Source: Minisyncoccota bacterium (GTDB taxonomy: Bacteria > Patescibacteriota > Minisyncoccia > Phycocordibacterales > UBA9973). From it: a stretch of DNA of 64,000 nt. Where the stretch lies: NCBI GenBank assembly GCA_028718635.1, contig JAQULK010000001.1, forward strand, positions 152,626 to 216,625. The letters are read 5' to 3'. This document shows positions 29,226 through 62,039 of this stretch, in pieces. Each line of letters starts with the position of its first letter. Within the stretch, counting starts at the first letter, position 1. The notes under the pieces were generated by a model. It did not search any database, was not told the origin of the DNA, and was given only the letters and a program-made list of their open reading frames with translations. The translations under genes and the position numbers were made by a program.

Positions 29226-31310
29226 TTAATGCTCTATTTTAGTGGTGATAGTTTTCTTCGTAAATGGTTCGGTATAACCAAACAAATATCGTGCCAAGAA
29301 GATGAGAACGAGGATCAGAACGATTAGCAAGAGCCAGCCGAATAGATTTGTCGGGAAGAATCCAGCCCAGAAAGCGTTTGCTCCGAGGGGTACAACAATT
29401 TCATTTTCTGGATTACTCCAAACTTGTGCGGAAACATTTGCGCTTACTGATTGGTTTTGACCGGAAGGATCAGTGTAGTTCAAAGTTGCAGGGAAATTTA
29501 AGTTCGTTCCAGCAGGAATATTTTCTCGCACTCGAGTCCTGATGGTTACTGTCCCTTTGCCATTTGCTTTGAGTGTTCCTAGATTGAAGATTAAGGTATT
29601 GCCAGAGATAATCGGATTATTTGGATTAGAAGACAGATAATCTACTTCAAAAGGAAGATTTATTTGCAGATTAAGATTGGTAATTGACCCTGTGCCAATA
29701 TTTTGATAACTCACAGTGTAATTAATCTCATCTCCTGGGCGCGGTCTGGTGTTGTCTATGGTAGGAACTATTGGTTGATTGCGATCGATAGAAGAAGTGA
29801 TAAGCACGAGCGAAGTCGGAGTAGGTTTTGGACCAACGGGATTTCGAACACTTATTGTTTCTGAATCAGTAGCAGATCCAAAACTATTGCTACAGGTAAG
29901 GGTATAAGATTTACTACTCGTTAGTGATCCAGTGAAAAAACTTCCCGGACCAATACTTTTTGCTCCTGCCCAGCCGACAGATCCACCGCTTGCATAACAA
30001 GAAGTTGCATTGGTGGTAATCCAGCGAACAGTGGCAGTTCCATTATAAGGAACACTCACTTTATCTGAATAGACTGTTACCGTAGGTTGGTTATTTACAG
30101 CCCTATAGATACAAGGCAATACCCCTCTGTAATTTATAGCGTTAGGGTCTTGGCATACCTGAATATAATTATTGTAGGTACAAGGCAATACTCCCCCATA
30201 ATTATTAGCATTTCTGTCTAAGCAAGTTTGCTGTACTTGATTCACATATACCGTCGCAGAAGCGGTGGCACTCAAGCCGTTCGTTCCGTAACAAGTAATG
30301 CTGTAGGTGGTAGTGACATTTGGCACGACAATTCCAGAACCGGAAGTGGCATTACTGTTCATCCAGTAACCGGAACAGGAAGTAGCATTGGTAGAATACC
30401 AGGTCAAGGTAGAGTTTTGTCCAGATTGGATACTTGAAGGGCTAGCGTACAGAGTAACGGTAGGATTTGCGTTTTGGTATCTGCAAGGCAATGAACCACC
30501 GTAGTTTATCGCATTCGGATCTTGGCAAGTCTGTTGTGCTTGATTCACGTACACAGTAGCTTGTGCTGTAGCGCTCAAGCCGCTGGCGCCGTAACAAGTG
30601 ATACTGTATGTGGTGGTAATATTTGGTACGACAATACCGAAACCATTCGTAGCGGTACTTGAAGTCCAGTATGCGGAACAGGAAGTTGCGTTTGTGGAAT
30701 TCCAGGTCAAATTAGAGTTTTGTCCAGATTGGATAGTCGTCGGATTAGCATTCAAGGTAACAGTGGGTTGCTGAACTGGGCAAGGTGCAGTTGTATATGA
30801 TTGACTAGATGGTCCAGAACAATAGGCTCCTCCGTTAGCTGGAGCTGGATTAGTACAAGTGCGAGTTTGAGTGCCGGTGTATCCACATTGAGTAGACTGA
30901 GGACTCCAATCACTCCAGCCTCCGTTTATGGGAGTTGGGGTTGGGGTACAAGCGGGAGTGGTAATAGATTTAATACCACCAGTGTTAGTGCCGTAATTAT
31001 TTGTTACTATGAGTTCGAAATAATAGGTGGTACTTGGAGACAGGTTAGCGACAAATTGTTCAATTGGAAAAGTTCCTTCTGTATAAAAATATTTTGTCTC
31101 AGTTACCATTCCTCCACCGTTTTGCACGGTAGTAAAATCTGGACTGTATATAAACCTAGCATAGGCAGGAGGGGTGCCGGTAGTTACGTCACCAACAAAG
31201 GTTGCACTATTGCAAGTCAAAGCGGAAGCCTTAGATGGAATTATAAAAAAGCTAAAGAGTGCAAAGACACTCAATATCAACCCGATCGACAATTTTATTT
31301 TTTTATTCAT
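29226..31310 (-). CDS. Surface protein with signal peptide, Ig-like tandem repeats, DUF11-like domain and C-terminal TM anchor
   Basis: Signal peptide MNKKIKLSIGLILSVFALFSFFIIPSKASA; three copies of an 80-aa repeat (QPTVT..A.P..IQSGQNS.LTW.STNATSC..YW...); DUF11-like segment; C-terminal hydrophobic helix. Tandem DNA repeats of about 250 bp lie inside the gene. Confidence 0.7.
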   Translation of the reverse strand: MNKKIKLSIGLILSVFALFSFFIIPSKASALTCNSATFVGDVTTGTPPAYARFIYSPDFTTVQNGGGMVTETKYFYTEGTFPIEQFVANLSPSTTYYFELIVTNNYGTNTGGIKSITTPACTPTPTPINGGWSDWSPQSTQCGYTGTQTRTCTNPAPANGGAYCSGPSSQSYTTAPCPVQQPTVTLNANPTTIQSGQNSNLTWNSTNATSCSAYWTSSTATNGFGIVVPNITTTYSITCYGASGLSATAQATVYVNQAQQTCQDPNAINYGGSLPCRYQNANPTVTLYASPSSIQSGQNSTLTWYSTNATSCSGYWMNSNATSGSGIVVPNVTTTYSITCYGTNGLSATASATVYVNQVQQTCLDRNANNYGGVLPCTYNNYIQVCQDPNAINYRGVLPCIYRAVNNQPTVTVYSDKVSVPYNGTATVRWITTNATSCYASGGSVGWAGAKSIGPGSFFTGSLTSSKSYTLTCSNSFGSATDSETISVRNPVGPKPTPTSLVLITSSIDRNQPIVPTIDNTRPRPGDEINYTVSYQNIGTGSITNLNLQINLPFEVDYLSSNPNNPIISGNTLIFNLGTLKANGKGTVTIRTRVRENIPAGTNLNFPATLNYTDPSGQNQSVSANVSAQVWSNPENEIVVPLGANAFWAGFFPTNLFGWLLLIVLILVLIFLARYLFGYTEPFTKKTITTKIEH
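29880..30700. repeat. Tandem ~250-bp direct repeats (2 full plus 1 partial) within the surface protein gene 29226..31310
   Basis: Long near-identical DNA blocks (e.g. ...CAAGGCAATGAACCACCGTAGTTTATCGCATTCGGATCTTGGCAAGTCTG... vs ...CAAGGCAATACTCCCCCATAATTATTAGCATTTCTGTCTAAGCAAGTTTG...) encoding the repeated QPTVT...TW.STNATSC module. Confidence 0.6.
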
Positions 31311-32849: not shown

Positions 32850-33344
32850 CTAAAACCCCAAGGCCTCCATTATTTTTTCTGAAGCATGTTCTTTCATTTC
32901 CACTTCTGGAATATTTTTTGAAAGCATTATGGAGTGAATATCTTCTGCTATTGCTTCAGCTATTGGGATAGAGAGAATAGGCATAAAAGCTCTTTCTGAA
33001 TGAATGAAAAGGATTGGTTTAATACCTGCTTCAGGATGTTCTCCTAATTGAACCCAAAAGGATTTTATATTTTCAAAAGGATAAAGGCGGTTTCTAATGA
33101 TCAAGCCCTTTTGATTTAATTCATAGGTGATCGTATCTGGTTTTTTAATGGCAAAAAATCCGAGCAGGATTCCAGCAAGAATAATTAAAGCTGCAAAAAA
33201 ATAATTTTCAAAAATAATAGAAGCGATGGAGCTTGTCACCACAATGATGCCGAGCGCCCAAAACCAATCCGAGGTTCGATCTTTCTCTTCGTATTCCAAG
33301 GCAGACCAAACTAATTTTTCATCTGATCTTTCGATTATTTCCAT
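32850..33344 (-). CDS. Hypothetical membrane protein (2 TM)
   Basis: ORF with two hydrophobic helices. Its ATG is provided by the end of a MITE-like repeat. Confidence 0.5.
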   Translation of the reverse strand: MEIIERSDEKLVWSALEYEEKDRTSDWFWALGIIVVTSSIASIIFENYFFAALIILAGILLGFFAIKKPDTITYELNQKGLIIRNRLYPFENIKSFWVQLGEHPEAGIKPILFIHSERAFMPILSIPIAEAIAEDIHSIMLSKNIPEVEMKEHASEKIMEALGF

Positions 33345-33466
33345 CCCGTTAGAAGCAGATCGCGATCAACTCGCGTATCTGATATATTAGGTTATTAATT
33401 TTCTCAATACTTGGTTTCATGTTTTTGTTTGTTTTAAAATTGCGATCGCGGCTTCTAACGGGATCC
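33342..33466 (-). mobile_element. MITE-like ~125-bp element, copy A, with ~22-bp terminal inverted repeats (ATCCCGTTAGAAGC.GATCGCGATC)
   Basis: About 85% identical over its full length to the reverse complement of 59112..59236; termini CATCCCGTTAGAAGC...GCTTCTAACGGGATCC. Confidence 0.7.
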
Positions 33467-33530
33467 ATAAAGTAATTGTAACATATTTTCGAAAAGTTGT
33501 GTTTTGTCATTCGCAGTATATAATGAAACG

Positions 33531-34973
33531 ATGCAAATCAACACAATTTTAATGAGAATAAGGGCGTTTTTTACCAAAAAGAAGATTATTTGGACAATCG
33601 TTATATTAGTCCTATTGTTTTTGGGCTACCTTATTTTTGGCAAAAAATCTAACACCAGCAACATTCAAACCGTTTTGGTTAAACAGCAAGATATCCAAAA
33701 AACAGTTCTAGCCACCGGACAAGTCGTCAGTTCTACGGATTTAGATTTGAGCTGGCAATCAAGCGGAGTAGTGAAAAAAGTTTTGGTAAAAGAAGGAGAT
33801 GTGGTGCACGCCGGAGAAGTACTAGCAGAACAAGACACGAGCGATCTTGTAGCTCAATTGCACAATGCGCAAGCTGGTTTGGTTTTAGCACAAGAGCGTG
33901 CGTCTTCTTCAAAAAGTAATCTCGCAAACGTAACTGCTGAGCAAAACATCCTCGTCCAAAACGCCCACCGCACTCTCCTAAACTCCACCCTTTCTGTTCT
34001 AACAGTCGGAGACTATAGCGGTTCGGATGCTCCAACAGTTTCCGGAACCTACAGCTGTGATCAAGAAGGAACTTATGACTTAAAAACTTATGGTTCAGCA
34101 GGCGGTGTTTCTGTAAACTACTCTGGGCTAGAACAAGGATCTCTGTTGTTAACCGATATTCCAAGACCTATGGGAAACTGTGGACTCTTTCTATCTTTTG
34201 ATAAAACCAAGACTTTACAATCTGGAGTTGAATTTAAGATAAACATTCCGAACAAAACTGCTACCAATTACAATACCAACTACAATGCTTACCAACTCGC
34301 TTTACAGAATCGAGATACTGCTATTGCGGGGGCGGAGGCAAATGTGGGAGTCACTGATTCTGTAGCTGAAGCGCAAATTGCTCAAGCGCAAGCCAGCGTG
34401 GATAGTATTTTAATAAAAATTCAGAATGCTAAAATTATTGCTCCTACGAGCGGTACGATTACCCAGGTGGATATAAAAGTTGGGGAATTGGCGCAGGCCT
34501 CAAAAGAAGCGCTAAAATTATTAAATGTCGGAGAATTGCATGCCGAAGCTTTGGTTAGTGAAGCTGACATTGCCTCTGTCGCCGTAGGTCAATCAATCGA
34601 CAATACTTTTGATGCGCTTGGTCCGGATAAACATTTTACAACCAAAGTGCTTACAGTGAATCCTGCCTCCACTGTTATTTCTGGCGTAGTCAATTACAAA
34701 GTGACTGGTAGTTTGGAAAAAATTCCTGAGATCAAGCCTGGCATGACCGACAACATGACGATAACCGTGGCGGAAAAGAAAAATGTATTAGTGATTCCAA
34801 ACAGCGCGATCATAAACAAAGACAACAAGCGCATTGTAAGAGTGATCAATGATCCGAAAACGAAAACTTACACCGAAGTGCCGGTGGAAACAGGACTCGA
34901 AGCAGATGGTGGGCTGACAGAGATTATGTCTGGGCTCAGCCTAGGGCAGGAGGTGGTAACTTTTATTAAATAG
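33531..34973 (+). CDS. HlyD-family membrane fusion protein (efflux periplasmic adaptor)
   Basis: N-terminal TM anchor, coiled-coil and beta-barrel/lipoyl-like regions typical of MFP. First gene of an MFP-ABC-permease-permease module. TATAAT lies 8 nt upstream of the ATG at 33531. Confidence 0.75.
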   Translation: MQINTILMRIRAFFTKKKIIWTIVILVLLFLGYLIFGKKSNTSNIQTVLVKQQDIQKTVLATGQVVSSTDLDLSWQSSGVVKKVLVKEGDVVHAGEVLAEQDTSDLVAQLHNAQAGLVLAQERASSSKSNLANVTAEQNILVQNAHRTLLNSTLSVLTVGDYSGSDAPTVSGTYSCDQEGTYDLKTYGSAGGVSVNYSGLEQGSLLLTDIPRPMGNCGLFLSFDKTKTLQSGVEFKINIPNKTATNYNTNYNAYQLALQNRDTAIAGAEANVGVTDSVAEAQIAQAQASVDSILIKIQNAKIIAPTSGTITQVDIKVGELAQASKEALKLLNVGELHAEALVSEADIASVAVGQSIDNTFDALGPDKHFTTKVLTVNPASTVISGVVNYKVTGSLEKIPEIKPGMTDNMTITVAEKKNVLVIPNSAIINKDNKRIVRVINDPKTKTYTEVPVETGLEADGGLTEIMSGLSLGQEVVTFIK

Positions 34974-45524: not shown

Positions 45525-48142
45525 TGAATGACGCTCGCCAATTTTGTCATCCTGAACTTGTTTCAGGATCTAATGCGTTTGCCAAAATAATAAAACTTTT
45601 CCGTTTCATTTTTTTCTTCTCGATATTTCTGGGAAGCTTTTTTGTTTTGGCAAACGAAGCAAGCGCGGCGACGTATTATGTGGATGCGACTCTTGGAAAG
45701 GATACATATAATGGTATAACCACAACTATAAATGATGGAGCAAGTGAAGGTCCATGGAAAACACTAACTAAAGTAAATGCCGCGCTGAATGCCGCTTCTA
45801 TTCATGCTGGTGATAGTGTTTTATTTAAAGCAGGGGAGACTTTCTTTGGCTATTTGTATGTTAAGGTAACGGGAACGGTAGGAAATATATTAACATTTGA
45901 TTCCTATGGAAGTGGAAATAAACCTATAATCGACGCTACTGGAAATAATAGCGGTATCGATCTTCGTGGAATAAATTATGTTACGTTTAATAATTTGGAT
46001 GTTAGAAATGCAACATTCCAAGGATACTTTTTTCTCAATGGAAATGACCACATAACAATAAATAATGGAAGTATATCTTCTTCTGCAAAGGCTATCCATC
46101 TCTATAACAATACAATTTCAAATCTAACAATTTCAAATCTAAATGCCAGTAATAATACATATGGTATTTATGGATTTGCCGGGGTTACTGTTAACACATT
46201 GTCCATATCCAATAGCCATTTCGACGACAACACATCAGAAGGTTTTTTCACCGATGGCACTGCGAACGGGAGTAATTTTACGATAACAGATACCACCATG
46301 TCCCGTAATGGGATCGGATCTGATAAAAATGGATTTTTACTACAAGGGACCGGCAGTACAGTTATCCTTACCAGGGTAACATCAGCCAACAACGGAGGGG
46401 ATGGATTTGGTGTCCATAACACTTGGATTGGTGTTATTTTTGATTATTGTACGGCGGATACTAACGGAACAGACGGGATAGGATCAGATGGAGACGGATT
46501 CAGTTTCCATGAGACTTCTTCTGGAATAATCAGGTATTCAATCAGCAAAAATAATTTAAAAACTGCGATTGCTCACGTTAATAGCTCCGCTGTTGAAATG
46601 TATTATGATCTTTTTTATCATGCAACCAATGGCACCTTGCCGCTTGTTTTATTACAAAATACTGGAAATCATAAATTATATAATAATATTATTTACAGTG
46701 GAAGTCAGACTGGTGATGCAGTAAGCGTTGAAGGGACCGTTGATATGCAAAACAATATAATAGATGGTTTCAATCGTGGCCTTATAAAAACTGGAGGAAC
46801 AATATCCAATGACCATGATATTATTTATGGAGTATTAACTTCTAATTATGTTGGTATTTCTGCCGGTGCTTATTCAATTATACAGGATCCAAAATTTTTT
46901 AATTCCAGTATTTATAACTTTTCCCTTCTCCCCACTTCCCCCGCCATCGACTCTGGCACCGATGTCTCATTAACCACCGACTACGCCGGCAATTCCATCT
47001 ACGGTACGCCCGACATCGGCGCTTATGAATACCAGCCGCCATATACCATGGGCACGGATGCAGTAAACACTTCCACCAGTGTCAGAATGTACGGAGACGA
47101 AAAGTTCAGAAACAAAACCGCCACCACCACGGAAACCACGGCTGATCTCTCAATTACCATTCCCGACTCGGATAAAACCAAGTGGCTGGACATAGCAGTT
47201 TCCACCTGGGACAACTCCGGAACTTATCACAAAACCTGGACGGAAAACACTACCAGCACCATTACCAACACCCTCCATACCATCGGAGACCTGGAACCCA
47301 ACAAATACTACAATGTGTCCGTGGATTCCGTTCTGGGAAACAACATTACCGGCGATAACTGTTCAAACGGCCTCTGTCTTTCCAACGCGGAAGGTAAAAT
47401 ATCTTTTACCTATACTGGTTCATATTCCGAACACACCTTTGACGTGGAAGAAGGAGATAATACCGCCCCCATCCGTTCCGCCGGTTTGCCTTCCGGCAGT
47501 CAACCTGCTGGCACAACGCAAGTAACAATGTCTTTGACCACCGACGAAAACGCCACCTGCAAATACTCCACCTCTGCCGACACCGCTTACGCTTCCATGA
47601 CCGATACCTTTACCACAACTGGCACCCAATCCCATTCCACCACCATTTCCGGTCTCTCCAACGGCAATACATACAATTACTATGTCCGCTGCACTGACGG
47701 CTCAAATGCTAACAGCAACGATTACCCTATTTCTTTTTCCATTACTAACCCTACCGCGCATTCTTCAGGCAACAGTGCTCAGAGTCGAATCAACAATCTG
47801 CTCTCCATGGGCAACTACACCCAAGCGCAACAATTGGCTAATCAATACAATATTTCAATTCCAGTAATTACCACCCCGCCTACAGCACCCCTCCTGAATC
47901 AAGGAGGGGAAAGAAGTGTTAATGCTTACAACTTTGGTCTCTCTGTTCTCAAAAAAGGAAGCAAAGGTGAAGCTGTCAAAGAACTCCAGAAGTTCTTAAA
48001 CCAAGATCTGAAACTAAACTTGAAAATAGATGGCATCTTGGGATCAAAAACAACTATGGCTATCAAACAATACCAAAAAGCGCATAATCTAAAAGTGGAT
48101 GGGGTAGTGGGGGAGAAGACGAAGGGGAGGATGGGGGTGTGA
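45524..48142 (+). CDS. Secreted right-handed beta-helix (pectate-lyase-like repeat) protein with C-terminal peptidoglycan-binding domain
   Basis: Hydrophobic signal-like segment then cleavage-like ANEASAA; many N.T.S..N..I/..N repeats typical of parallel beta-helix; C-terminal PG_binding_1-like segment (KGEAVKELQKFLNQ...IDGILGSKTTMAIKQYQ). GTG start preceded by a (GA)7 repeat. Confidence 0.7.
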   Translation: MNDARQFCHPELVSGSNAFAKIIKLFRFIFFFSIFLGSFFVLANEASAATYYVDATLGKDTYNGITTTINDGASEGPWKTLTKVNAALNAASIHAGDSVLFKAGETFFGYLYVKVTGTVGNILTFDSYGSGNKPIIDATGNNSGIDLRGINYVTFNNLDVRNATFQGYFFLNGNDHITINNGSISSSAKAIHLYNNTISNLTISNLNASNNTYGIYGFAGVTVNTLSISNSHFDDNTSEGFFTDGTANGSNFTITDTTMSRNGIGSDKNGFLLQGTGSTVILTRVTSANNGGDGFGVHNTWIGVIFDYCTADTNGTDGIGSDGDGFSFHETSSGIIRYSISKNNLKTAIAHVNSSAVEMYYDLFYHATNGTLPLVLLQNTGNHKLYNNIIYSGSQTGDAVSVEGTVDMQNNIIDGFNRGLIKTGGTISNDHDIIYGVLTSNYVGISAGAYSIIQDPKFFNSSIYNFSLLPTSPAIDSGTDVSLTTDYAGNSIYGTPDIGAYEYQPPYTMGTDAVNTSTSVRMYGDEKFRNKTATTTETTADLSITIPDSDKTKWLDIAVSTWDNSGTYHKTWTENTTSTITNTLHTIGDLEPNKYYNVSVDSVLGNNITGDNCSNGLCLSNAEGKISFTYTGSYSEHTFDVEEGDNTAPIRSAGLPSGSQPAGTTQVTMSLTTDENATCKYSTSADTAYASMTDTFTTTGTQSHSTTISGLSNGNTYNYYVRCTDGSNANSNDYPISFSITNPTAHSSGNSAQSRINNLLSMGNYTQAQQLANQYNISIPVITTPPTAPLLNQGGERSVNAYNFGLSVLKKGSKGEAVKELQKFLNQDLKLNLKIDGILGSKTTMAIKQYQKAHNLKVDGVVGEKTKGRMGV

Positions 48143-48244: not shown

Positions 48245-48316
48245 GCCCTTGTAGTTCAATGGATAGAACAGAGCTCTTCTAAGGCTTCGATGTAGGTTCG
48301 ATTCCTACCAAGGGCA
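48245..48316 (+). tRNA. tRNA-Arg (anticodon UCU)
   Basis: Acceptor GCCCTTG/CAAGGGC, D arm GTTCAATGGATAGAAC, anticodon loop CTTCTAA, T arm TAGGTTCGATTCCTA. Confidence 0.75.
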
Positions 48317-53585: not shown

Positions 53586-53684
53586 AGAGGTTGTTTATGT
53601 TAGATTAAATCGACTACTTGTCCCGTTAGAAAATCAGCGGACTGGTAAGAAGTAGTAAGTTTATTATTTAAATTTTTTAATGGG

Positions 53685-54095
53685 ATGGCAGGAAATAAAA
53701 TCAATAAAATAAAATTCACTCCGGTAGATATCGAAGAGCGAAAGAAGCTTAATTTCAAGGCTGGAGATACTGTTTCTGTTTCGTCAAAGATTATAGATGA
53801 AAAAGGCAAGTCTCGTTTTCAAGTTTTTGAGGGTATCGTGCTTGCTAGAAAACATGGCACTGAAGCGGGTGCTACTTTTACCGTCAGAAAGGTTTCTTCT
53901 GGTGTTGGAGTAGAAAGAATTTTTCCGTTATATTCTCCAATGATAGGGGAAATCAAAATAACTAAAAGGTCTCGCGCTCGCAGGTCAAAACTTTACTATA
54001 TCCGTACCAAGGCAGTCAAAGATGTTCGCAAAAAAATGCGTTCCATCGCTCATTCAGAGGAAGCAAACGATGCAGTAGAAAAAGTTGCAGAATAA
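53685..54095 (+). CDS. rplS: 50S ribosomal protein L19
   Basis: Typical L19 core (FKAGDTVSV...RFQVFEGIV...) with a basic C-terminal extension. Confidence 0.9.
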   Translation: MAGNKINKIKFTPVDIEERKKLNFKAGDTVSVSSKIIDEKGKSRFQVFEGIVLARKHGTEAGATFTVRKVSSGVGVERIFPLYSPMIGEIKITKRSRARRSKLYYIRTKAVKDVRKKMRSIAHSEEANDAVEKVAE

Positions 54096-59092: not shown

Positions 59093-59111
59093 GGTATAGC
59101 ATAGAAGTGAT

Positions 59112-59236
59112 GGATCCCGTTAGAAGCCGCGATCGCAATTTAAAAACAAACAAAATATGAAATCAAATATTTGGGAAATTAATAATATAAAACATAAGAT
59201 ACGTGAGTTGATCGCGATCTGCTTCTAACGGGATGG
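59112..59236 (+). mobile_element. MITE-like ~125-bp element, copy B
   Basis: GGATCCCGTTAGAAGCCGCGATCGC...GATCGCGATCTGCTTCTAACGGGATGG; its 3' terminus supplies the murB ATG. Confidence 0.7.
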
Positions 59237-60246
59237 AAATTTTAAAGAACTACAATCTTTCTAAGTTAAACACCCTCGGTATCAACGTCGAGGCGAAATT
59301 TTTCGTCGAAGTGCAATCTGAAAAAGATCTGAAAGAACTTTTTGTTTTGCCCGAATTTAAAAATAATAAGAAAATGTTCCTCGGGGGAGGGAGCAATGTT
59401 TTATTTACCAAAGATTTTGACGGAATGGTGGTTTTAAATAAATTAAGAGGCATAGAAATCACGGAAGAAGATTCTGAAAATGTTTATATTCGCGGAGCGG
59501 GCGGAGAACTTTGGCATGATTTGGTAATGTTTGCTGTCAATCATGGATATTGGGGCATAGAAAATTTATCATTCATTCCTGGGACTGTCGGTGCTGCGCC
59601 GGTACAAAACATAGGAGCATATGGACTAGAGCTCAAGGATGTGCTTTTTAACGTTGAAACTTTTGAAATTGAAACAGGAATAAAAAGGATTTTTAGCAAA
59701 GAAGAGTGCAAGTTGGGATACCGGGACAGTGTTTTTAAAAATAAATTAAAAAATAAATATTTTATTTCAGCTATTACTTTAAAATTAAGCAAAAAAGAAA
59801 AGCGAAACATAAAATATAAAATTTTGTCAGATTTTTTAGAAAAAAATAAAATAGAAATTAAGAGCCCAAAAGATATTAGCGATGCTGTGATGTGTATACG
59901 CCAAAGCAAATTACCAGACCCAAAAATTATAGGCAATGCCGGGAGTTTTTTTAAAAATGTTTTTGTGGGGAAAGAACAGCTGCAAGTTTTGCAAATAAGT
60001 TATCCGGAAATCCCTCATTTTGAAAATAATGGAATTATAAAAATTCCTGCTGCTTGGTTGGTTGAACAGTGCGGATGGAAAGGACACAGAGTGGGGAATG
60101 TCGGGGTGCATGAAAAGCAAGCACTAGTTTTAGTAAATTACGGAGAGGTGAAAGGTTTAGAGATTTTGGAGTTAGCAAACAAAATAATTGCATCCGTAAA
60201 AGAAAAATTCGGACTGGATTTAGTGCCCGAAGTTAATATTGTGTAA
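59233..60246 (+). CDS. murB: UDP-N-acetylenolpyruvoylglucosamine reductase
   Basis: FAD-binding domain with FLGGGSNVLF and a C-terminal MurB domain. Start codon is embedded in the terminal repeat of a MITE-like element. Confidence 0.85.
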   Translation: MEILKNYNLSKLNTLGINVEAKFFVEVQSEKDLKELFVLPEFKNNKKMFLGGGSNVLFTKDFDGMVVLNKLRGIEITEEDSENVYIRGAGGELWHDLVMFAVNHGYWGIENLSFIPGTVGAAPVQNIGAYGLELKDVLFNVETFEIETGIKRIFSKEECKLGYRDSVFKNKLKNKYFISAITLKLSKKEKRNIKYKILSDFLEKNKIEIKSPKDISDAVMCIRQSKLPDPKIIGNAGSFFKNVFVGKEQLQVLQISYPEIPHFENNGIIKIPAAWLVEQCGWKGHRVGNVGVHEKQALVLVNYGEVKGLEILELANKIIASVKEKFGLDLVPEVNIV

Positions 60247-60301
60247 GTGGCGCTATTTTGAAAACAGTTGCCTTTTTATATAATTGTATTATACTGTACA
60301 T

Positions 60302-60904
60302 ATGAGTACAGGTAAAAATGATAAAGTTGCAAGAAAAAGCGGTTATTTAGGTCGTTTTGCGCAATTAGCCGGGTTGGGTATGGTAATTTTTCACGCTGGC
60401 GATCTGGCTAATTTATGGCAGATAAAGAACAAAAATACTTTGCATACCACTTTAAAACGTTACACCCGGGCCGGATTATTGACGCGAGTTTATCGAGGCC
60501 TGTATTCCTTAAAGCCGGTTGAGAAACTGGAGCCAGCGCTTTTGGGCGCAAAGGCTTTGCATAGATATGCATACATGAGTGCGGAAACGGTCTTGGCACA
60601 AGAAGGGATTATCCAGCAAAAAATCAATCGGATTACCCTTGTGAGTTCAGTGTCAAAGAAATTTTCCATAAACGGACAGAATTTCCATTCCCGGAAATTA
60701 GCTGACCGGTTTCTATATAATCCGGCCGGCATAATTGAAAAAGATGGAGTGAAAAGGGCGATGGCAGAAAGAGCGGTGGCGGATATGCTATATTTCAATC
60801 CCAAGACTCATTTCGACGCGGAAGGTTTGATAAATTGGCGCAAGGTCAAGGAGATACAGGAGACTATCGGCTATTCGCCAACCTTTAAGCATTACCGGAA
60901 ATAA
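60302..60904 (+). CDS. AbiEi-like antitoxin/transcriptional regulator (type IV TA system)
   Basis: About 200 aa, wHTH-like N-terminus, immediately upstream of (4-nt gap from) an AbiEii-type nucleotidyltransferase gene. An inverted repeat spans its start codon. Confidence 0.65.
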   Translation: MSTGKNDKVARKSGYLGRFAQLAGLGMVIFHAGDLANLWQIKNKNTLHTTLKRYTRAGLLTRVYRGLYSLKPVEKLEPALLGAKALHRYAYMSAETVLAQEGIIQQKINRITLVSSVSKKFSINGQNFHSRKLADRFLYNPAGIIEKDGVKRAMAERAVADMLYFNPKTHFDAEGLINWRKVKEIQETIGYSPTFKHYRK

Positions 60905-60907
60905 TTT

Positions 60908-61645
60908 ATGATTTTACCCAATACCAAAGACACCATCCACAAAGCCTGGCTTTACAGGTTGCTTTCGGGAATTTACGACGAGCCTCAACTCGCTGGGTTT
61001 TTGTATTTCAAGGGCGGAACTTGTGCGGCGATGCTCGGGTATCTTGATCGTTTTTCGGTGGATTTGGATTTTGATTTTACCGGTAAAAAGGAAGATGTTC
61101 CGATGGTTCAAAAAAAACTGGAAAAAGTTTTCAGAAAGCTCGGCATGGAAATAAAAGACCGAAGCAAAAACGTTCCGCAATATTTTTTGAAATATCCCGC
61201 TAAAGATCATGAGCGAAACACGATAAAATTGGATGTTACTTTTCCTCCGCCCTTGGCCAACAAATATGAACCCAAGGAATTTGCTGATATTGACAGGATC
61301 ATTACTTGCCAGACTATCGAAACGATGTTTGCCAATAAATTGGTGGCGCTTATCGACCGTTATGAGAAAAACGAGTCCATCGCCGGGCGCGACCTGTATG
61401 ACATCCATCATTTTTTCTTTCAAGGCTTCACTTATGACAAGGAAGTGATTGAGGAAAGAAGGAAAAAGTCTGTCGCGGAGTTTTTTAGGGAGCTAGCGGA
61501 TTTTATCGAGAAAAACATCACTGAAACGATTATCAACCAGGACTTGAATTCTTTGCTCGCACCTGATCAATTCCAAAAAATTAGAAAGATATTGAAGCGG
61601 GAAACACTGATGTTTCTGCGGGACGAAATAAAAAGGAGTAGTTGA
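60908..61645 (+). CDS. AbiEii/AbiGii-family nucleotidyltransferase toxin (DUF1814)
   Basis: FKGGTCAAMLGYLDRFSVDLDFDF matches the GGTa...RfSeDlDF nucleotidyltransferase motif. Confidence 0.75.
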   Translation: MILPNTKDTIHKAWLYRLLSGIYDEPQLAGFLYFKGGTCAAMLGYLDRFSVDLDFDFTGKKEDVPMVQKKLEKVFRKLGMEIKDRSKNVPQYFLKYPAKDHERNTIKLDVTFPPPLANKYEPKEFADIDRIITCQTIETMFANKLVALIDRYEKNESIAGRDLYDIHHFFFQGFTYDKEVIEERRKKSVAEFFRELADFIEKNITETIINQDLNSLLAPDQFQKIRKILKRETLMFLRDEIKRSS

Positions 61646-62039
61646 TTATTTTTTAGTGGAGCGGGTTGAGCGTGATATAATATCTGCAAGGAGTTCCTTC
61701 TACATTGCATTATGTTTGTACAAATAGTTTTACACATTGCACATTATGACTTCCGACTCGGAGTCATGATATTATTAAAATATGAAAACCCGACCCAACC
61801 CGCGACCCCACTTCATTGTATTTCTTTTACATGGCATCAAGAGATTAACTACCTCGCTAAACAATCCCAACATTTTCAAACCAGCCCTATTGTTACTTTG
61901 CTCGGATGGGGTAGTGGGGGAGAAGACGAAGGGGAGGATGAATGGGGATATTTAAAGTGCGTTGGACAAGACTCTAACTTGCTTAGCTTGATTACTTGTT
62001 GTTATAATTAAATTATTAAAAATCTAATTAATCTTAATT
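61646..62039 (+). other. GC-richer non-coding or degraded region downstream of the AbiE pair, holding a displaced 36-bp fragment of the PG-binding domain gene tail and a strong hairpin
   Basis: GATGGGGTAGTGGGGGAGAAGACGAAGGGGAGGATG at 61906..61941 is identical to 48104..48139 (3' end of the CDS 45524..48142) but in a different frame. The ORF 61712..62011 has low-complexity translation. Hairpin ATGACTTCCGACTCGGAGTCAT at 61748..61773. Confidence 0.5.

Follow-up and report, generated by a model that had tools for sequence, protein, structure and literature searches.

Within the 64,000-nt stretch of DNA analysed here (the window), two similar segments bounded by inverted repeats each run directly into the start codon of a gene, which raises the question of what these segments are and how much of a gene's 5′ end they bring with them. 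A preliminary description of this DNA had proposed a MITE-like mobile element acting as a portable 5′ end, with a terminus that supplies the ATG and first codons and perhaps a promoter or leader. Based on the evidence below, we put at roughly 0.7 the probability that the window repeats belong to a family of very small mobile elements found in Patescibacteria, within which they would be non-autonomous and MITE-like. The two copies and their insertion sites are delimited as follows.

33344..33463, minus strand: copy A, a 120-bp probable non-autonomous element with ends TCCCGTTAGAAGC...GCTTCTAACGGGA, placed by repeat count, alignment and the empty ortholog site
33340..33343, minus strand: gene-proximal target site duplication of copy A, TGGA, which together with base 33344 gives the ATGGA of the host gene
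33464..33467, minus strand: promoter-proximal target site duplication of copy A, TGGA; the original start codon ATG is 33468..33466
32850..33344, minus strand: host gene of copy A, encoding a 164-aa conserved hypothetical protein of Paceibacteria
59115..59233, plus strand: copy B, a 119-bp probable non-autonomous element, placed by repeat count, alignment and the empty murB ortholog site
59111..59114, plus strand: promoter-proximal target site duplication of copy B, TGGA; the original start codon ATG is 59110-59112
59234..59237, plus strand: gene-proximal target site duplication of copy B, TGGA
59233..60246, plus strand: host gene of copy B, murB (UDP-N-acetylmuramate dehydrogenase)

Alignment of the two copies gave 83–85% identity across ~131 nt in inverse orientation, bearing out the ~85% reported before, and both lie, as also described, in divergent intergenic regions where each abuts the ATG of a gene. 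A perfect 14-nt terminal inverted repeat is present at each end of each copy, and the 14-mer ATCCCGTTAGAAGC occurs in the window at these four places and no others (shuffles: mean 0.34, with four occurrences reached in 0/100). A second helix of 7 bp (CGCGATC/GATCGCG) follows the repeat, shifted by a 4-nt bulge that is confined to the gene-proximal arm, and RNA folds of the element copies reach −37 to −38 kcal/mol (z = −3.6 to −3.9). Neither copy has a transposase-sized ORF, the only reading frames being of 16–39 codons. The host protein of copy A returned zero matches in Pfam.

Both window copies are insertions. Each has the layout TGGA, element, TGGA, a 4-bp target duplication that reads TCCA on the plus strand of copy A (33340-33343 and 33464-33467), and the last base of each element, 33344 on the minus strand for copy A and 59233 for copy B, is the A of the host ATG. 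Orthologs of murB (88% and 85% identical) and of the 164-aa gene (88–91%) have the same ATGGAAAT 5′ end without an element, and their promoters and start codons are identical to those of the window genes (L121, L124, L126–L128). The start and first codons were therefore not imported by the element, as the preliminary description had supposed. What stands of that claim is a single base: in the shared ...ATGGAAAT string, A alone is the element's last base, whereas TGGA is duplicated target and AAT belongs to the native gene. The small size, terminal inverted repeats, target duplications with empty sites and dispersed copies are those of a MITE, and to this extent the earlier reading of a mobile element is upheld.

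The same duplication is found throughout the family. The nucleotides that separate the upstream ATG from the element equal those following the downstream ATG at 154 of 167 positions, compared with 93 for shuffled pairings (maximum 110 in 1000 trials). The duplicated target is usually TGAA or TGGA and ranges from 3 to 5 bp, with a mode of 4 bp (65 short and 59 long copies, the long ones being the ~275-bp relatives described below). The ends are symmetric under the model NCCCG..CGGGN′ in copy A, in 118/124 short copies and in 106/113 long copies. The start codon is thus rebuilt with the element's last base as its first base and TG from the target, while the original start codon is retained upstream of the inserted element. 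In a C/G-ended subfamily (left boundary ATGAA/CCCCG..., right boundary ...CGGGG/TGAA), this rebuilding turns the host start into GTG (15 cases). A first model, in which a 5-bp duplication ATGNN flanks an element TCCCG...CGGG, was dropped for the 4-bp model because the C/G-ended elements convert ATGAA to GTGAA downstream; L117, with GTGGA on both sides, is an exception that better fits the 5-bp ATGNN model.

A search of genomes for the terminal repeat, along the lines suggested in the preliminary description, recovered a family at no fewer than 120 genome loci, nearly all in Patescibacteria. Since the scans were seeded with the repeat itself, the proportions given here are valid for that sample, and the counts include related copies, which are non-independent events. 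Of the two observations named beforehand as counting against the proposal, element-free murB orthologs with an identical 5′ region do exist, but the family is far from restricted to two copies. Family members share the inverted repeats NCCCGTTAGA..../....TCTAACGGGN′, and as many as four copies lie within 8 kb; the window itself holds two copies and one probable relic. The position at ORF starts also proved general: CGGGATG is present at exactly one end in 106 of 126 copies sampled from these loci, and 98 of the 106 abutting ATGs are the start of an ORF of 60 aa or more. In host proteins of this kind, among them RuvX, trigger factor, RsmH and a Trp/Tyr-type (class I) tRNA synthetase, the Pfam domain starts at residues 1–5. 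One subfamily occupies TTGACA (−35-like) sites instead of start codons. Viral contigs scanned for the repeat pair gave 0 matches.

The orientation of the element relative to the downstream gene is fixed. An internal asymmetry, C...T, is polar in 84/106 copies and the flipped A...G state occurs in 0, so that all informative copies have the same interior orientation. This argues against an invertible promoter switch that toggles the downstream gene, for which inverted repeats of 14 + 7 bp around a ~70-nt AT-rich segment directly upstream of genes would otherwise be a fitting architecture; internal promoter-like sites are moreover at shuffle level, and we regard such a switch as scarcely credible.

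The stable hairpin, two compensatory variants of the second helix within the family and the constant position relative to the start codon could also be read as a vertically inherited cis-regulatory leader RNA of a regulon, such as a riboswitch, attenuator or protein-binding operator. However, the segment is absent from close orthologs that have identical promoters and start codons, it is flanked by target duplications, and the genes that follow it have no functional relation to one another (murB, trigger factor, tRNA synthetases, pilus genes, RuvX and others). Its interior is unconserved, with a median identity of 0.62 across copies, and it matches no Rfam family: in searches at gathering and permissive thresholds only tRNAs passed gathering, and the best local match had E ≥ 0.38. 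A leader RNA is accordingly very improbable. An integron attC site was also considered, with the 5′ arm RYYYAAC, the 3′ arm GTTRRRY and cassette arrays as its marks. The elements read GTTAGAA at the 5′ side and TTCTAAC at the 3′ side in either orientation, so that the conserved triplets run with the opposite polarity, and on this ground attC identity was rejected; unlike the cassettes of attC arrays, the copies are solitary at gene starts.

As to how such short elements could move, elements of ~275 bp with the same ends carry a sole ORF, which encodes an 87–95-aa single-domain GIY-YIG nuclease (PF01541, E = 1e-16). These are found at a minimum of 120 metagenome loci, and in 110 of the 120 listed the frame is open for at least 70 codons. 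Matching protein clusters number at least 4,548, mostly of 94 aa, an example being MNPVRDNQFYYVYIL...RFLSLTG, and the closest solved structures are UPF0213 BH0048 (1zg2, E = 4e-8) and SLX1. The nuclease ORF often opens at the host's own ATG (MNPVRD...), and its stop overlaps the rebuilt start codon. Among the matches listed, 96 have an ORF of at least 80 codons, of which 37 begin at the host start codon; the stop lies within 7 nt of the element's right end in 81, overlapping N′TGA in 46 and falling at the repeat TAA in 35. Long and short elements occur together on contigs L034 and L049, and they have in common an asymmetric CCT just inside the right repeat (YCCT 5′ of the right core in 60/110 long elements, NYCT in 91/106 short ones). 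A tblastn search of the 64-kb window found no nuclease gene.

The inverted repeats and short target duplication are also the classical signature of DDE enzymes, and a duplication of 3 to 5 bp resembles that of some insertion sequence families, in which its length is variable. The copies could on these grounds be ordinary MITEs moved by an insertion sequence with a conventional transposase, with the GIY-YIG ORF either carried along as a passenger or spreading independently as a selfish gene with identical ends. We consider this unlikely: no repeat pair spaced for a transposase was detected in ~0.9 Mb of flanking DNA from 120 loci, all ORF-bearing elements recovered with these ends encode GIY-YIG proteins only, most of them intact as noted above, and the sequence shared by short and long elements extends asymmetrically beyond the repeat core.

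Under the preferred reading of a nuclease-linked family, the GIY-YIG protein would be the enzyme responsible for mobility and would mobilise the 120-bp copies in trans. Its substrate may, as for Ssn-type nucleases, be a hairpin, here the one into which both ends fold in single-stranded DNA. GIY-YIG transposition is without an established mechanism because a hydrolytic nuclease forms no covalent intermediate. The preference for start codons could reflect selection acting on a nuclease that prefers TGAA or TGGA rather than recognition of gene starts.

Insertion at a start codon would bury the host AUG in a hairpin, and the reading frames of the element and the promoters of its hosts bear on how the genes are still expressed. 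The relevant features in the window are these.

33475..33483, minus strand: native extended −10-like box TGTTACAAT, read from the sequence and of putative function
33349..33468, minus strand: upstream ORF of copy A, 39 codons, MDPVRSRDRNFKTNKNMKPSIEKINNLIYQIRELIAICF followed by a stop, which opens at the original ATG, spans the entire element and closes with the TAA of the right repeat
59110..59160, plus strand: upstream ORF 1 of copy B, 16 codons, MDPVRSRDRNLKTNKI followed by a stop, from the original ATG
59157..59228, plus strand: small ORF 2 of copy B, 23 codons, MKSNIWEINNIKHKIRELIAICF followed by a stop, with its TAA (59226-59228) 4 nt before the murB ATG

The box TGTTACAAT ends 6 nt upstream of the original ATG of copy A, a spacing that would suit a leaderless gene, and it is kept in the element-free orthologs. 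TANNNT hexamers are enriched ahead of the duplicated ATG, ending 6–9 nt from it in 34 of 83 copies. No Shine-Dalgarno enrichment was found upstream of the targeted ATGs. Across the window, where the hexamer is likewise enriched, the TANNNT arrangement precedes 23 of 58 long ORFs and an SD-like motif 5 of 58. These patterns suggest that the host genes are mostly leaderless and without Shine-Dalgarno sites, and we infer that native promoters sit upstream of the duplicated start codon. The promoter that the preliminary description had tentatively placed inside the element was not recovered, since a promoter scan of the interior gave no excess over shuffles and neither −10 nor SD enrichment precedes the internal small ORF across the family copies.

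In copy A, the upstream ORF ends with a TAA 4 nt before the host ATG and contains an internal 23-codon version starting at 33420. In copy B, the TGA of ORF 1 overlaps the ATG of small ORF 2 (ATGA), the two frames being offset by +1. Comparable frames are common in the family: 57/106 copies have an ORF of 19–29 codons whose TAA is part of the right repeat and precedes the host ATG by 4 nt. On the reverse strand such an ORF is present in 7/106, and shuffles gave a mean of 6.9 (maximum 15). Read-through from the upstream ATG to the right-repeat TAA occurs in 18/84 copies versus 3.5 expected. The excess over chance suggests a translational hand-over, and the element probably carries a directional translated leader. 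The notion of a portable 5′ end thus keeps the directional leader ORF and the first base of the start codon, and loses the promoter and the first codons.

A functional peptide of ~23 aa, for instance a toxin, signal or leader peptide, would also account for an ORF that is strongly enriched and limited in length to 19–29 codons, and several subfamilies encode a loose K-I-N-N-[IL]-x-K motif. Such a payload, as opposed to a mere ribosome relay, is nevertheless quite unlikely. The relay peptide is not conserved among copies outside a C-terminus set by the repeat and second helix (…IAICF, …TATCF), and the motif turns up in a different frame as well (…NKINLQTC…RDLLLTG), suggesting that the constraint acts on the DNA rather than on the peptide.

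For the relay reading, we propose the following sequence of events. Since the hosts lack Shine-Dalgarno sites and have mostly leaderless mRNAs, ribosomes would load at the original 5′-terminal AUG and translate the element ORF, be it the nuclease or, in short copies, the 19–39-codon relic ORF. While translating, they would open the hairpin in which the host AUG is buried, then terminate 0–4 nt from this AUG and reinitiate, with the result that the element is expressed and essential host genes such as murB still are. About 40% of short copies have no relay ORF in the TAA frame, some of them using the TGA-overlap frame, so reinitiation may not be necessary.

Taken as a whole, the ~275-bp relatives may be smaller than any other autonomous mobile element known from cellular genomes and may form a new class in their mechanism. 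They would depend on a nuclease only, with neither transposase nor recombinase, move through the hairpin that their ends form in single-stranded DNA, land at +1 to +5 of leaderless genes, capture the host start codon and rely on termination-reinitiation, the 120-bp copies being derivatives kept translatable by selection. We advance this wider proposal tentatively, rating it at somewhat less than an even chance. No description of these elements was found in open-access and bioRxiv full-text literature.

The closest published relatives are the Ssn/SRM GIY-YIG modules. Ssn proteins are single-domain GIY-YIG nucleases that cut ssDNA site-specifically and bind the hairpin repeats on either side of the genes encoding them, and the authors who described the NTS-ssnA-NTS modules (Chenal et al. 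2025) remarked on their IS-like architecture (PMC11893778). Their hosts are naturally competent or symbiotic bacteria, and Patescibacteria are unmentioned in that paper (PMC11893778). Like these modules, the ~275-bp relatives (though not the short copies) have a single-domain GIY-YIG protein of ~100 aa bracketed by inverted repeats, and Ssn genomes likewise hold many scattered orphan repeat copies. Unlike the SRMs, which are local hairpins, the two repeats here are the ends of one element and pair together. Further differences are the insertion demonstrated by target duplications and empty sites, the fixed polarity at start codons and a nuclease ORF that borrows the host start codon. The SRM motif HGTCWYN(0-2)YYVSBRHN(0-5)WNVSBRGN(0-2)RNCYNB had 0 matches in the window and 0 in the 120 nuclease-bearing elements with their 60-nt flanks.

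In mechanism, the closest model is the hairpin-dependent, single-strand 'peel and paste' movement of IS200/IS605 and its REP/PATE derivatives, which also include plentiful short non-autonomous palindromic forms. However, IS200/IS605 elements use HUH Y1 transposases, have subterminal hairpins, make no target duplication and recognise a fixed 4–5-nt target on one side only, whereas this family has direct duplications on both sides and its inverted repeats are terminal. GIY-YIG homing endonuclease genes (I-TevI, Seg proteins) are similar as selfish nuclease genes that spread in genomes. Those enzymes are of ~250 aa with a separate DNA-binding domain, and they spread by double-strand-break repair into a cognate allele, without inverted repeats or target duplications. 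The proteins here are, by contrast, single-domain, of 87–95 aa and encoded by bounded elements with repeats and duplications in many unrelated genes. MIRU repeats, said to have been described by Supply et al. in 1997, are reportedly intergenic, co-oriented with the operon and endowed with small ORFs that overlap the flanking stop and start codons, an overlap reportedly interpreted as translational coupling. They differ in being tandem and minisatellite-like inside operons, and in having neither terminal inverted repeats, target duplications nor a nuclease partner.

Other prokaryotic MITEs, such as the Correia/CREE elements of Neisseria, ERIC and the Rickettsia palindromic elements, share the size (~100–200 bp), terminal inverted repeats, target duplications and many copies adjoining genes. 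To our knowledge, none described so far is directed to start codons or contributes its terminal base to a rebuilt one. The family also departs from them in its hosts, the Patescibacteria, and in its partner, a nuclease-only element instead of a transposase-bearing insertion sequence. Hairpins of prokaryotic MITEs are co-transcribed and some contain small ORFs or are fused in frame to host genes, and a 2024 review of MITEs never mentions start codons (PMC10969869).

The elements described here are parasites of 120–275 bp that occupy start codons in essential genes, among them those for MurB, tRNA synthetases, trigger factor and TsaD, without killing these genes. Patescibacteria have tiny, gene-dense genomes and are thought to be poor in mobile elements. 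If the proposed mechanism is true, the family would represent a new, minimal kind of mobile element powered by a ~90-residue nuclease, and a natural case in which start codons are captured and translation is handed over in bacteria with leaderless genes and few Shine-Dalgarno sites. It would offer a direct handle on translation initiation in uncultured Patescibacteria, account for thousands of short ORFs annotated as 'GIY-YIG nuclease' or 'excinuclease ABC subunit C', and provide small sequence- or structure-specific nucleases paired with cognate sites, akin to emerging ssDNA tools. Gene callers may fuse or mis-start genes at element sites.

The relic in the window is short and degenerate.

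53621..53685, plus strand: probable third copy, TCCCGTTAGAAAA...TTTTTTAATGGGA, matching 11/13 repeat positions

Its last base is again the A of an ATG, that of a gene beginning MAGNKINKIKFTPVD..., which we take to be L19-like. Short variants, of 39–80 bp, are present at other loci too.

The repeat lies at both positions of the preliminary description, and its two copies, A and B, are 83-85% identical over ~131 nt in inverse orientation by pairwise alignment.

33344-33463, copy A (120 bp), at the start of the minus-strand host gene 32850..33344 (164-aa protein)
59115-59233, copy B (119 bp), at the start of the plus-strand host gene murB (59233-60246)

Each copy has the 14-mer ATCCCGTTAGAAGC at both ends, and these four occurrences are the only ones in the window, against a chance expectation of 0.34 from shuffles. 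Orthologues of murB (88% and 85% identity) share the window's Sua5 / Nramp (minus) / MurB (plus) neighbourhood and read ...tatagcatagaagtgATGGAAATTTTAAAG... without any insert, while the window's murB start reads ...gaagtgATGGA, then the element, then TGGAAATTTTAAAG. Orthologues of the 164-aa gene (88-91% identity) read ...TACAATTACT(T/C)TATGGAAAT..., also without the element. Since element-free orthologues exist at both sites, each window copy represents ~120 bp of foreign DNA between the duplicated TGGA found on both sides of each. The repeat is a mobile insertion, and a shared gene leader was rejected because close orthologues of both host genes lack it. The element had been proposed to bring in the first codons; this is not the case, as both genes natively start ATGGAAAT in the element-free orthologues, and from these comparisons the 'MEI' shared by the two proteins is attributed to the target, not to element cargo. 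A 'Candidatus Pacebacteria' MAG encodes proteins with 100% identity to MurB and to the 164-aa protein, and the source genome belongs to Paceibacteria-type Patescibacteria (CPR).

Folded as RNA, the element region reaches -37 to -38 kcal/mol (z ~ -3.7), and it matches no Rfam family. The 14-bp repeat of the window copies encloses a further helix of 7 bp (CGCGATC/GATCGCG); a 4-nt bulge, present on the gene-proximal arm only, separates the two. A probable third copy, short and degenerate, occupies 53621-53685 (TCCCGTTAGAAAA...TTTTTTAATGGGA); it ends with the A that opens the ATG of a gene beginning MAGNKINKIKFTPVD..., L19-like by reading. With a left flank of ...CTACTTG, this gene may originally have started at TTG, and the remaining direct repeat is just 2 bp (TG).

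One genome per species was scanned for CCGTTAGAAGC-N80-110-GCTTCTAACGG, the query being the repeat itself. Copies extend well beyond the original two, to at least 120 loci, and nearly all of those listed are Patescibacteria of many classes, including Saccharibacteria, Paceibacteria and Nomura-, Kaiser-, Jorgensen-, Levy- and Microgenomates-type MAGs. As many as four copies fall within 8 kb, and the viral contigs scanned for the repeat pair yielded none. Eight element contigs (L027, L052, L057, L058, L066, L069, L090, L110) carry labels of Bdellovibrionales, Elusimicrobiota, Omnitrophota, Gammaproteobacteria or Planctomycetota MAGs; these may be mis-binned Patescibacteria contigs, or could reflect real spread outside the phylum. 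Much shorter versions of 39-80 bp with the same terminal repeats were also seen, at L023:7696-7734 and L065:6941-7010 and as ~76-80-bp pairs in L005, L022, L054, L067, L076 and L081.

The element is associated with start codons in a fixed polarity. Among the loci listed, a repeat-seeded sample in which related copies are non-independent events, CGGGATG occurs at exactly one end in 106 of 126 copies, and fusion to ORF starts, noted preliminarily for two genes, recurs in 98 of these 106, where an ORF of at least 60 aa starts at the abutting ATG. Pfam domains of the host proteins begin at residues 1-5, and the host genes are unrelated housekeeping genes (trigger factor, RuvX, RsmH, TsaD, tRNA synthetases, MltG, DHODH, pilus ATPase and platform proteins). 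An internal asymmetry, C...T, points gene-ward in 84/106 of the copies listed and is flipped in none (0/106). An invertible switch is therefore excluded, since the orientation relative to the gene is the same in every informative copy listed.

In 84 of the 106 copies among the loci listed, another ATG closely precedes the element's far end, and the 1-3 bases after this ATG match those after the gene's ATG at 154 of 167 positions, compared with 93 (maximum 110) for shuffled pairings. Symmetric ends, NCCCG...CGGGN', fit 118 of 124 short (~120-bp) copies listed. Parsed this way, 65 copies have an exact direct repeat of 4 bp, 16 one of 3 bp and 8 one of 5 bp, most commonly TGAA and next TGGA. The element thus makes a 4-bp target duplication. 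Decisive evidence for the symmetric parse comes from C/G-ended relatives, with junctions ATGAA|CCCCG (left) and CGGGG|TGAA (right): these give GTG host starts (15 among those listed), so the rebuilt start codon takes its first base from the end of the element. The proposal that the terminus provides the start codon consequently holds for that single base, the codons that follow being native. Some copies show other duplications (TATG or CCATG), and one subfamily, at times in tandem arrays, occupies TTGACA (-35-like) sites and duplicates TTG(A). Start-codon targeting may be mechanistic, or may reflect selection acting on a TGA-preferring enzyme. In tandem head-to-tail arrays of elements with different interiors (L043:1157-1437; also beside copies in L020, L036 and L090), an identical 5-nt spacer (TTGAC or ATGAA) lies between units, as though insertion had recurred at the duplicated target.

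A nuclease is the sole product encoded by longer relatives that share the element's ends. Two loci with short copies also carry ~275-bp elements with ends TCCCGTTAGAGAC...GTCTCTAACGGGA and an ORF for a GIY-YIG domain (PF01541, E = 1e-16); a metagenome scan recovered such elements at no fewer than 120 loci, and 110 of the 120 listed have a frame open over 70 codons or more. Among the 96 listed with an ORF of at least 80 codons, the ORF starts at the host or duplicated start codon in 37 and stops at a TGA overlapping the rebuilt host start in 46, or at a TAA in the repeat in 35. Duplication and repeat together encode the nuclease's MNPVRD... N-terminus. Some long elements contain exactly the window's repeat core GAAGC. 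Long and short elements have in common an asymmetric YCT/CCT just inside the right core; this motif falls within the final codons of the nuclease (...F L S L T G *) and matches the bulge seen in the short copies. The nuclease has relatives in at least 4,548 protein clusters, mostly of 94 aa, annotated as 'GIY-YIG nuclease family protein' or, wrongly, 'excinuclease ABC subunit C', and its closest solved structures are UPF0213 BH0048 and SLX1. We infer that the nuclease would move the elements.

Full-text searches of open-access papers and bioRxiv found no description of these elements, and start codons go unmentioned in a 2024 review of prokaryotic MITEs (PMC10969869). The closest known system is Ssn, whose single-domain GIY-YIG proteins have been shown to bind hairpins and to cut ssDNA site-specifically; SRM repeats flank their genes in an 'IS-like' architecture (PMC11893778). 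The SRM motif has no match in the window or in the 120 long elements listed, and that paper, unlike our observations, reports neither target duplications nor start-codon association; nor does it mention Patescibacteria. Other small GIY-YIG genes lie between unrelated inverted repeats at L048:3478-3714 (ATGAATTCAAAAATGTT / AACATTTTTGAATTCAT) and L057:7447-7641 (GTCGAAGGATCT / AGATCCTTCGAC), and a nuclease gene between inverted repeats may be a general design in these bacteria.

Short copies carry a directional small ORF. Among the loci listed, 57 of 106 copies have, on the gene-ward strand, an ATG-initiated ORF of 19-29 codons (median 23) whose stop is the right repeat's TAA (GCTTC TAA CGGG ATG), with 4 nt left to the host ATG. 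On the reverse strand the figure is 7/106 (interior shuffles: mean 6.9, maximum 15). About ten further copies listed use the TGA-overlapping-ATGA frame, and in 18 of 84 an ORF begun at the upstream duplicated ATG spans the entire element, versus 3.5 expected. The window copies contain:

Copy A: one ORF of 39 codons, reading through from the upstream ATG
Copy B: an ORF of 16 codons, its TGA overlapping the ATG of an ORF of 23 codons

The peptides are conserved only where the repeat dictates residues. An internal promoter, as suggested preliminarily, finds no support from a promoter scan, and neither -10 nor SD motifs are enriched before the internal ATG across the copies listed.

Upstream of the duplicated ATG, SD motifs are not enriched across the copies listed, and a TANNNT hexamer ends 6-9 nt before it in 34 of 83. 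Both window genes have this arrangement, TGTTACAAT-6 nt-ATG for the 164-aa gene and TATAGC-9 nt-ATG for murB. Across the window, TANNNT ends 5-9 nt before the first ATG in 23 of 58 long ORFs (peak 6 nt; for example TATAAT-GAAACG-ATG at 33504-33534, upstream of the HlyD-like gene) and an SD-like motif precedes only 5, which argues that initiation is largely leaderless or SD-independent in these organisms. After insertion, the 5'-terminal AUG would belong to the element's ORF, and the host AUG would then lie inside the transcript, partly sequestered by the hairpin stem. The simplest way for murB and other host genes to stay expressed would be termination-reinitiation, and such ribosome hand-over is what we hypothesise.

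The window holds further repeats. A perfect 37-nt direct repeat (GGATGGGGTAGTGGGGGAGAAGACGAAGGGGAGGATG) occurs at 48097-48133, just upstream of a tRNA (48245-48316), and 13.8 kb away at 61904-61940. Other short pairs (18823-18909/41178-41264; 12446-12480/19492-19526; 11424-11510/63377-63413; 12938-12978/32813-32853) include one 87-nt repeat (76% identity) and one 35-nt inverted pair (97%); the remainder are GC-rich hairpins of types CCCTCCTT..AAGGAGGG and CCCTCTCCTT..AAGGAGAGGG, terminator-like in look. A tandem duplication with a ~296-nt unit (73% identity) spans 30169-30767, with a partial 50-nt copy at 30106. Directly downstream of murB (60284-61645), where relatives have FKBP/SIMPL/SecE/NusG, lie two ORFs of 206 and 245 aa that by eye resemble a putative AbiEi/AbiEii-type toxin-antitoxin pair.
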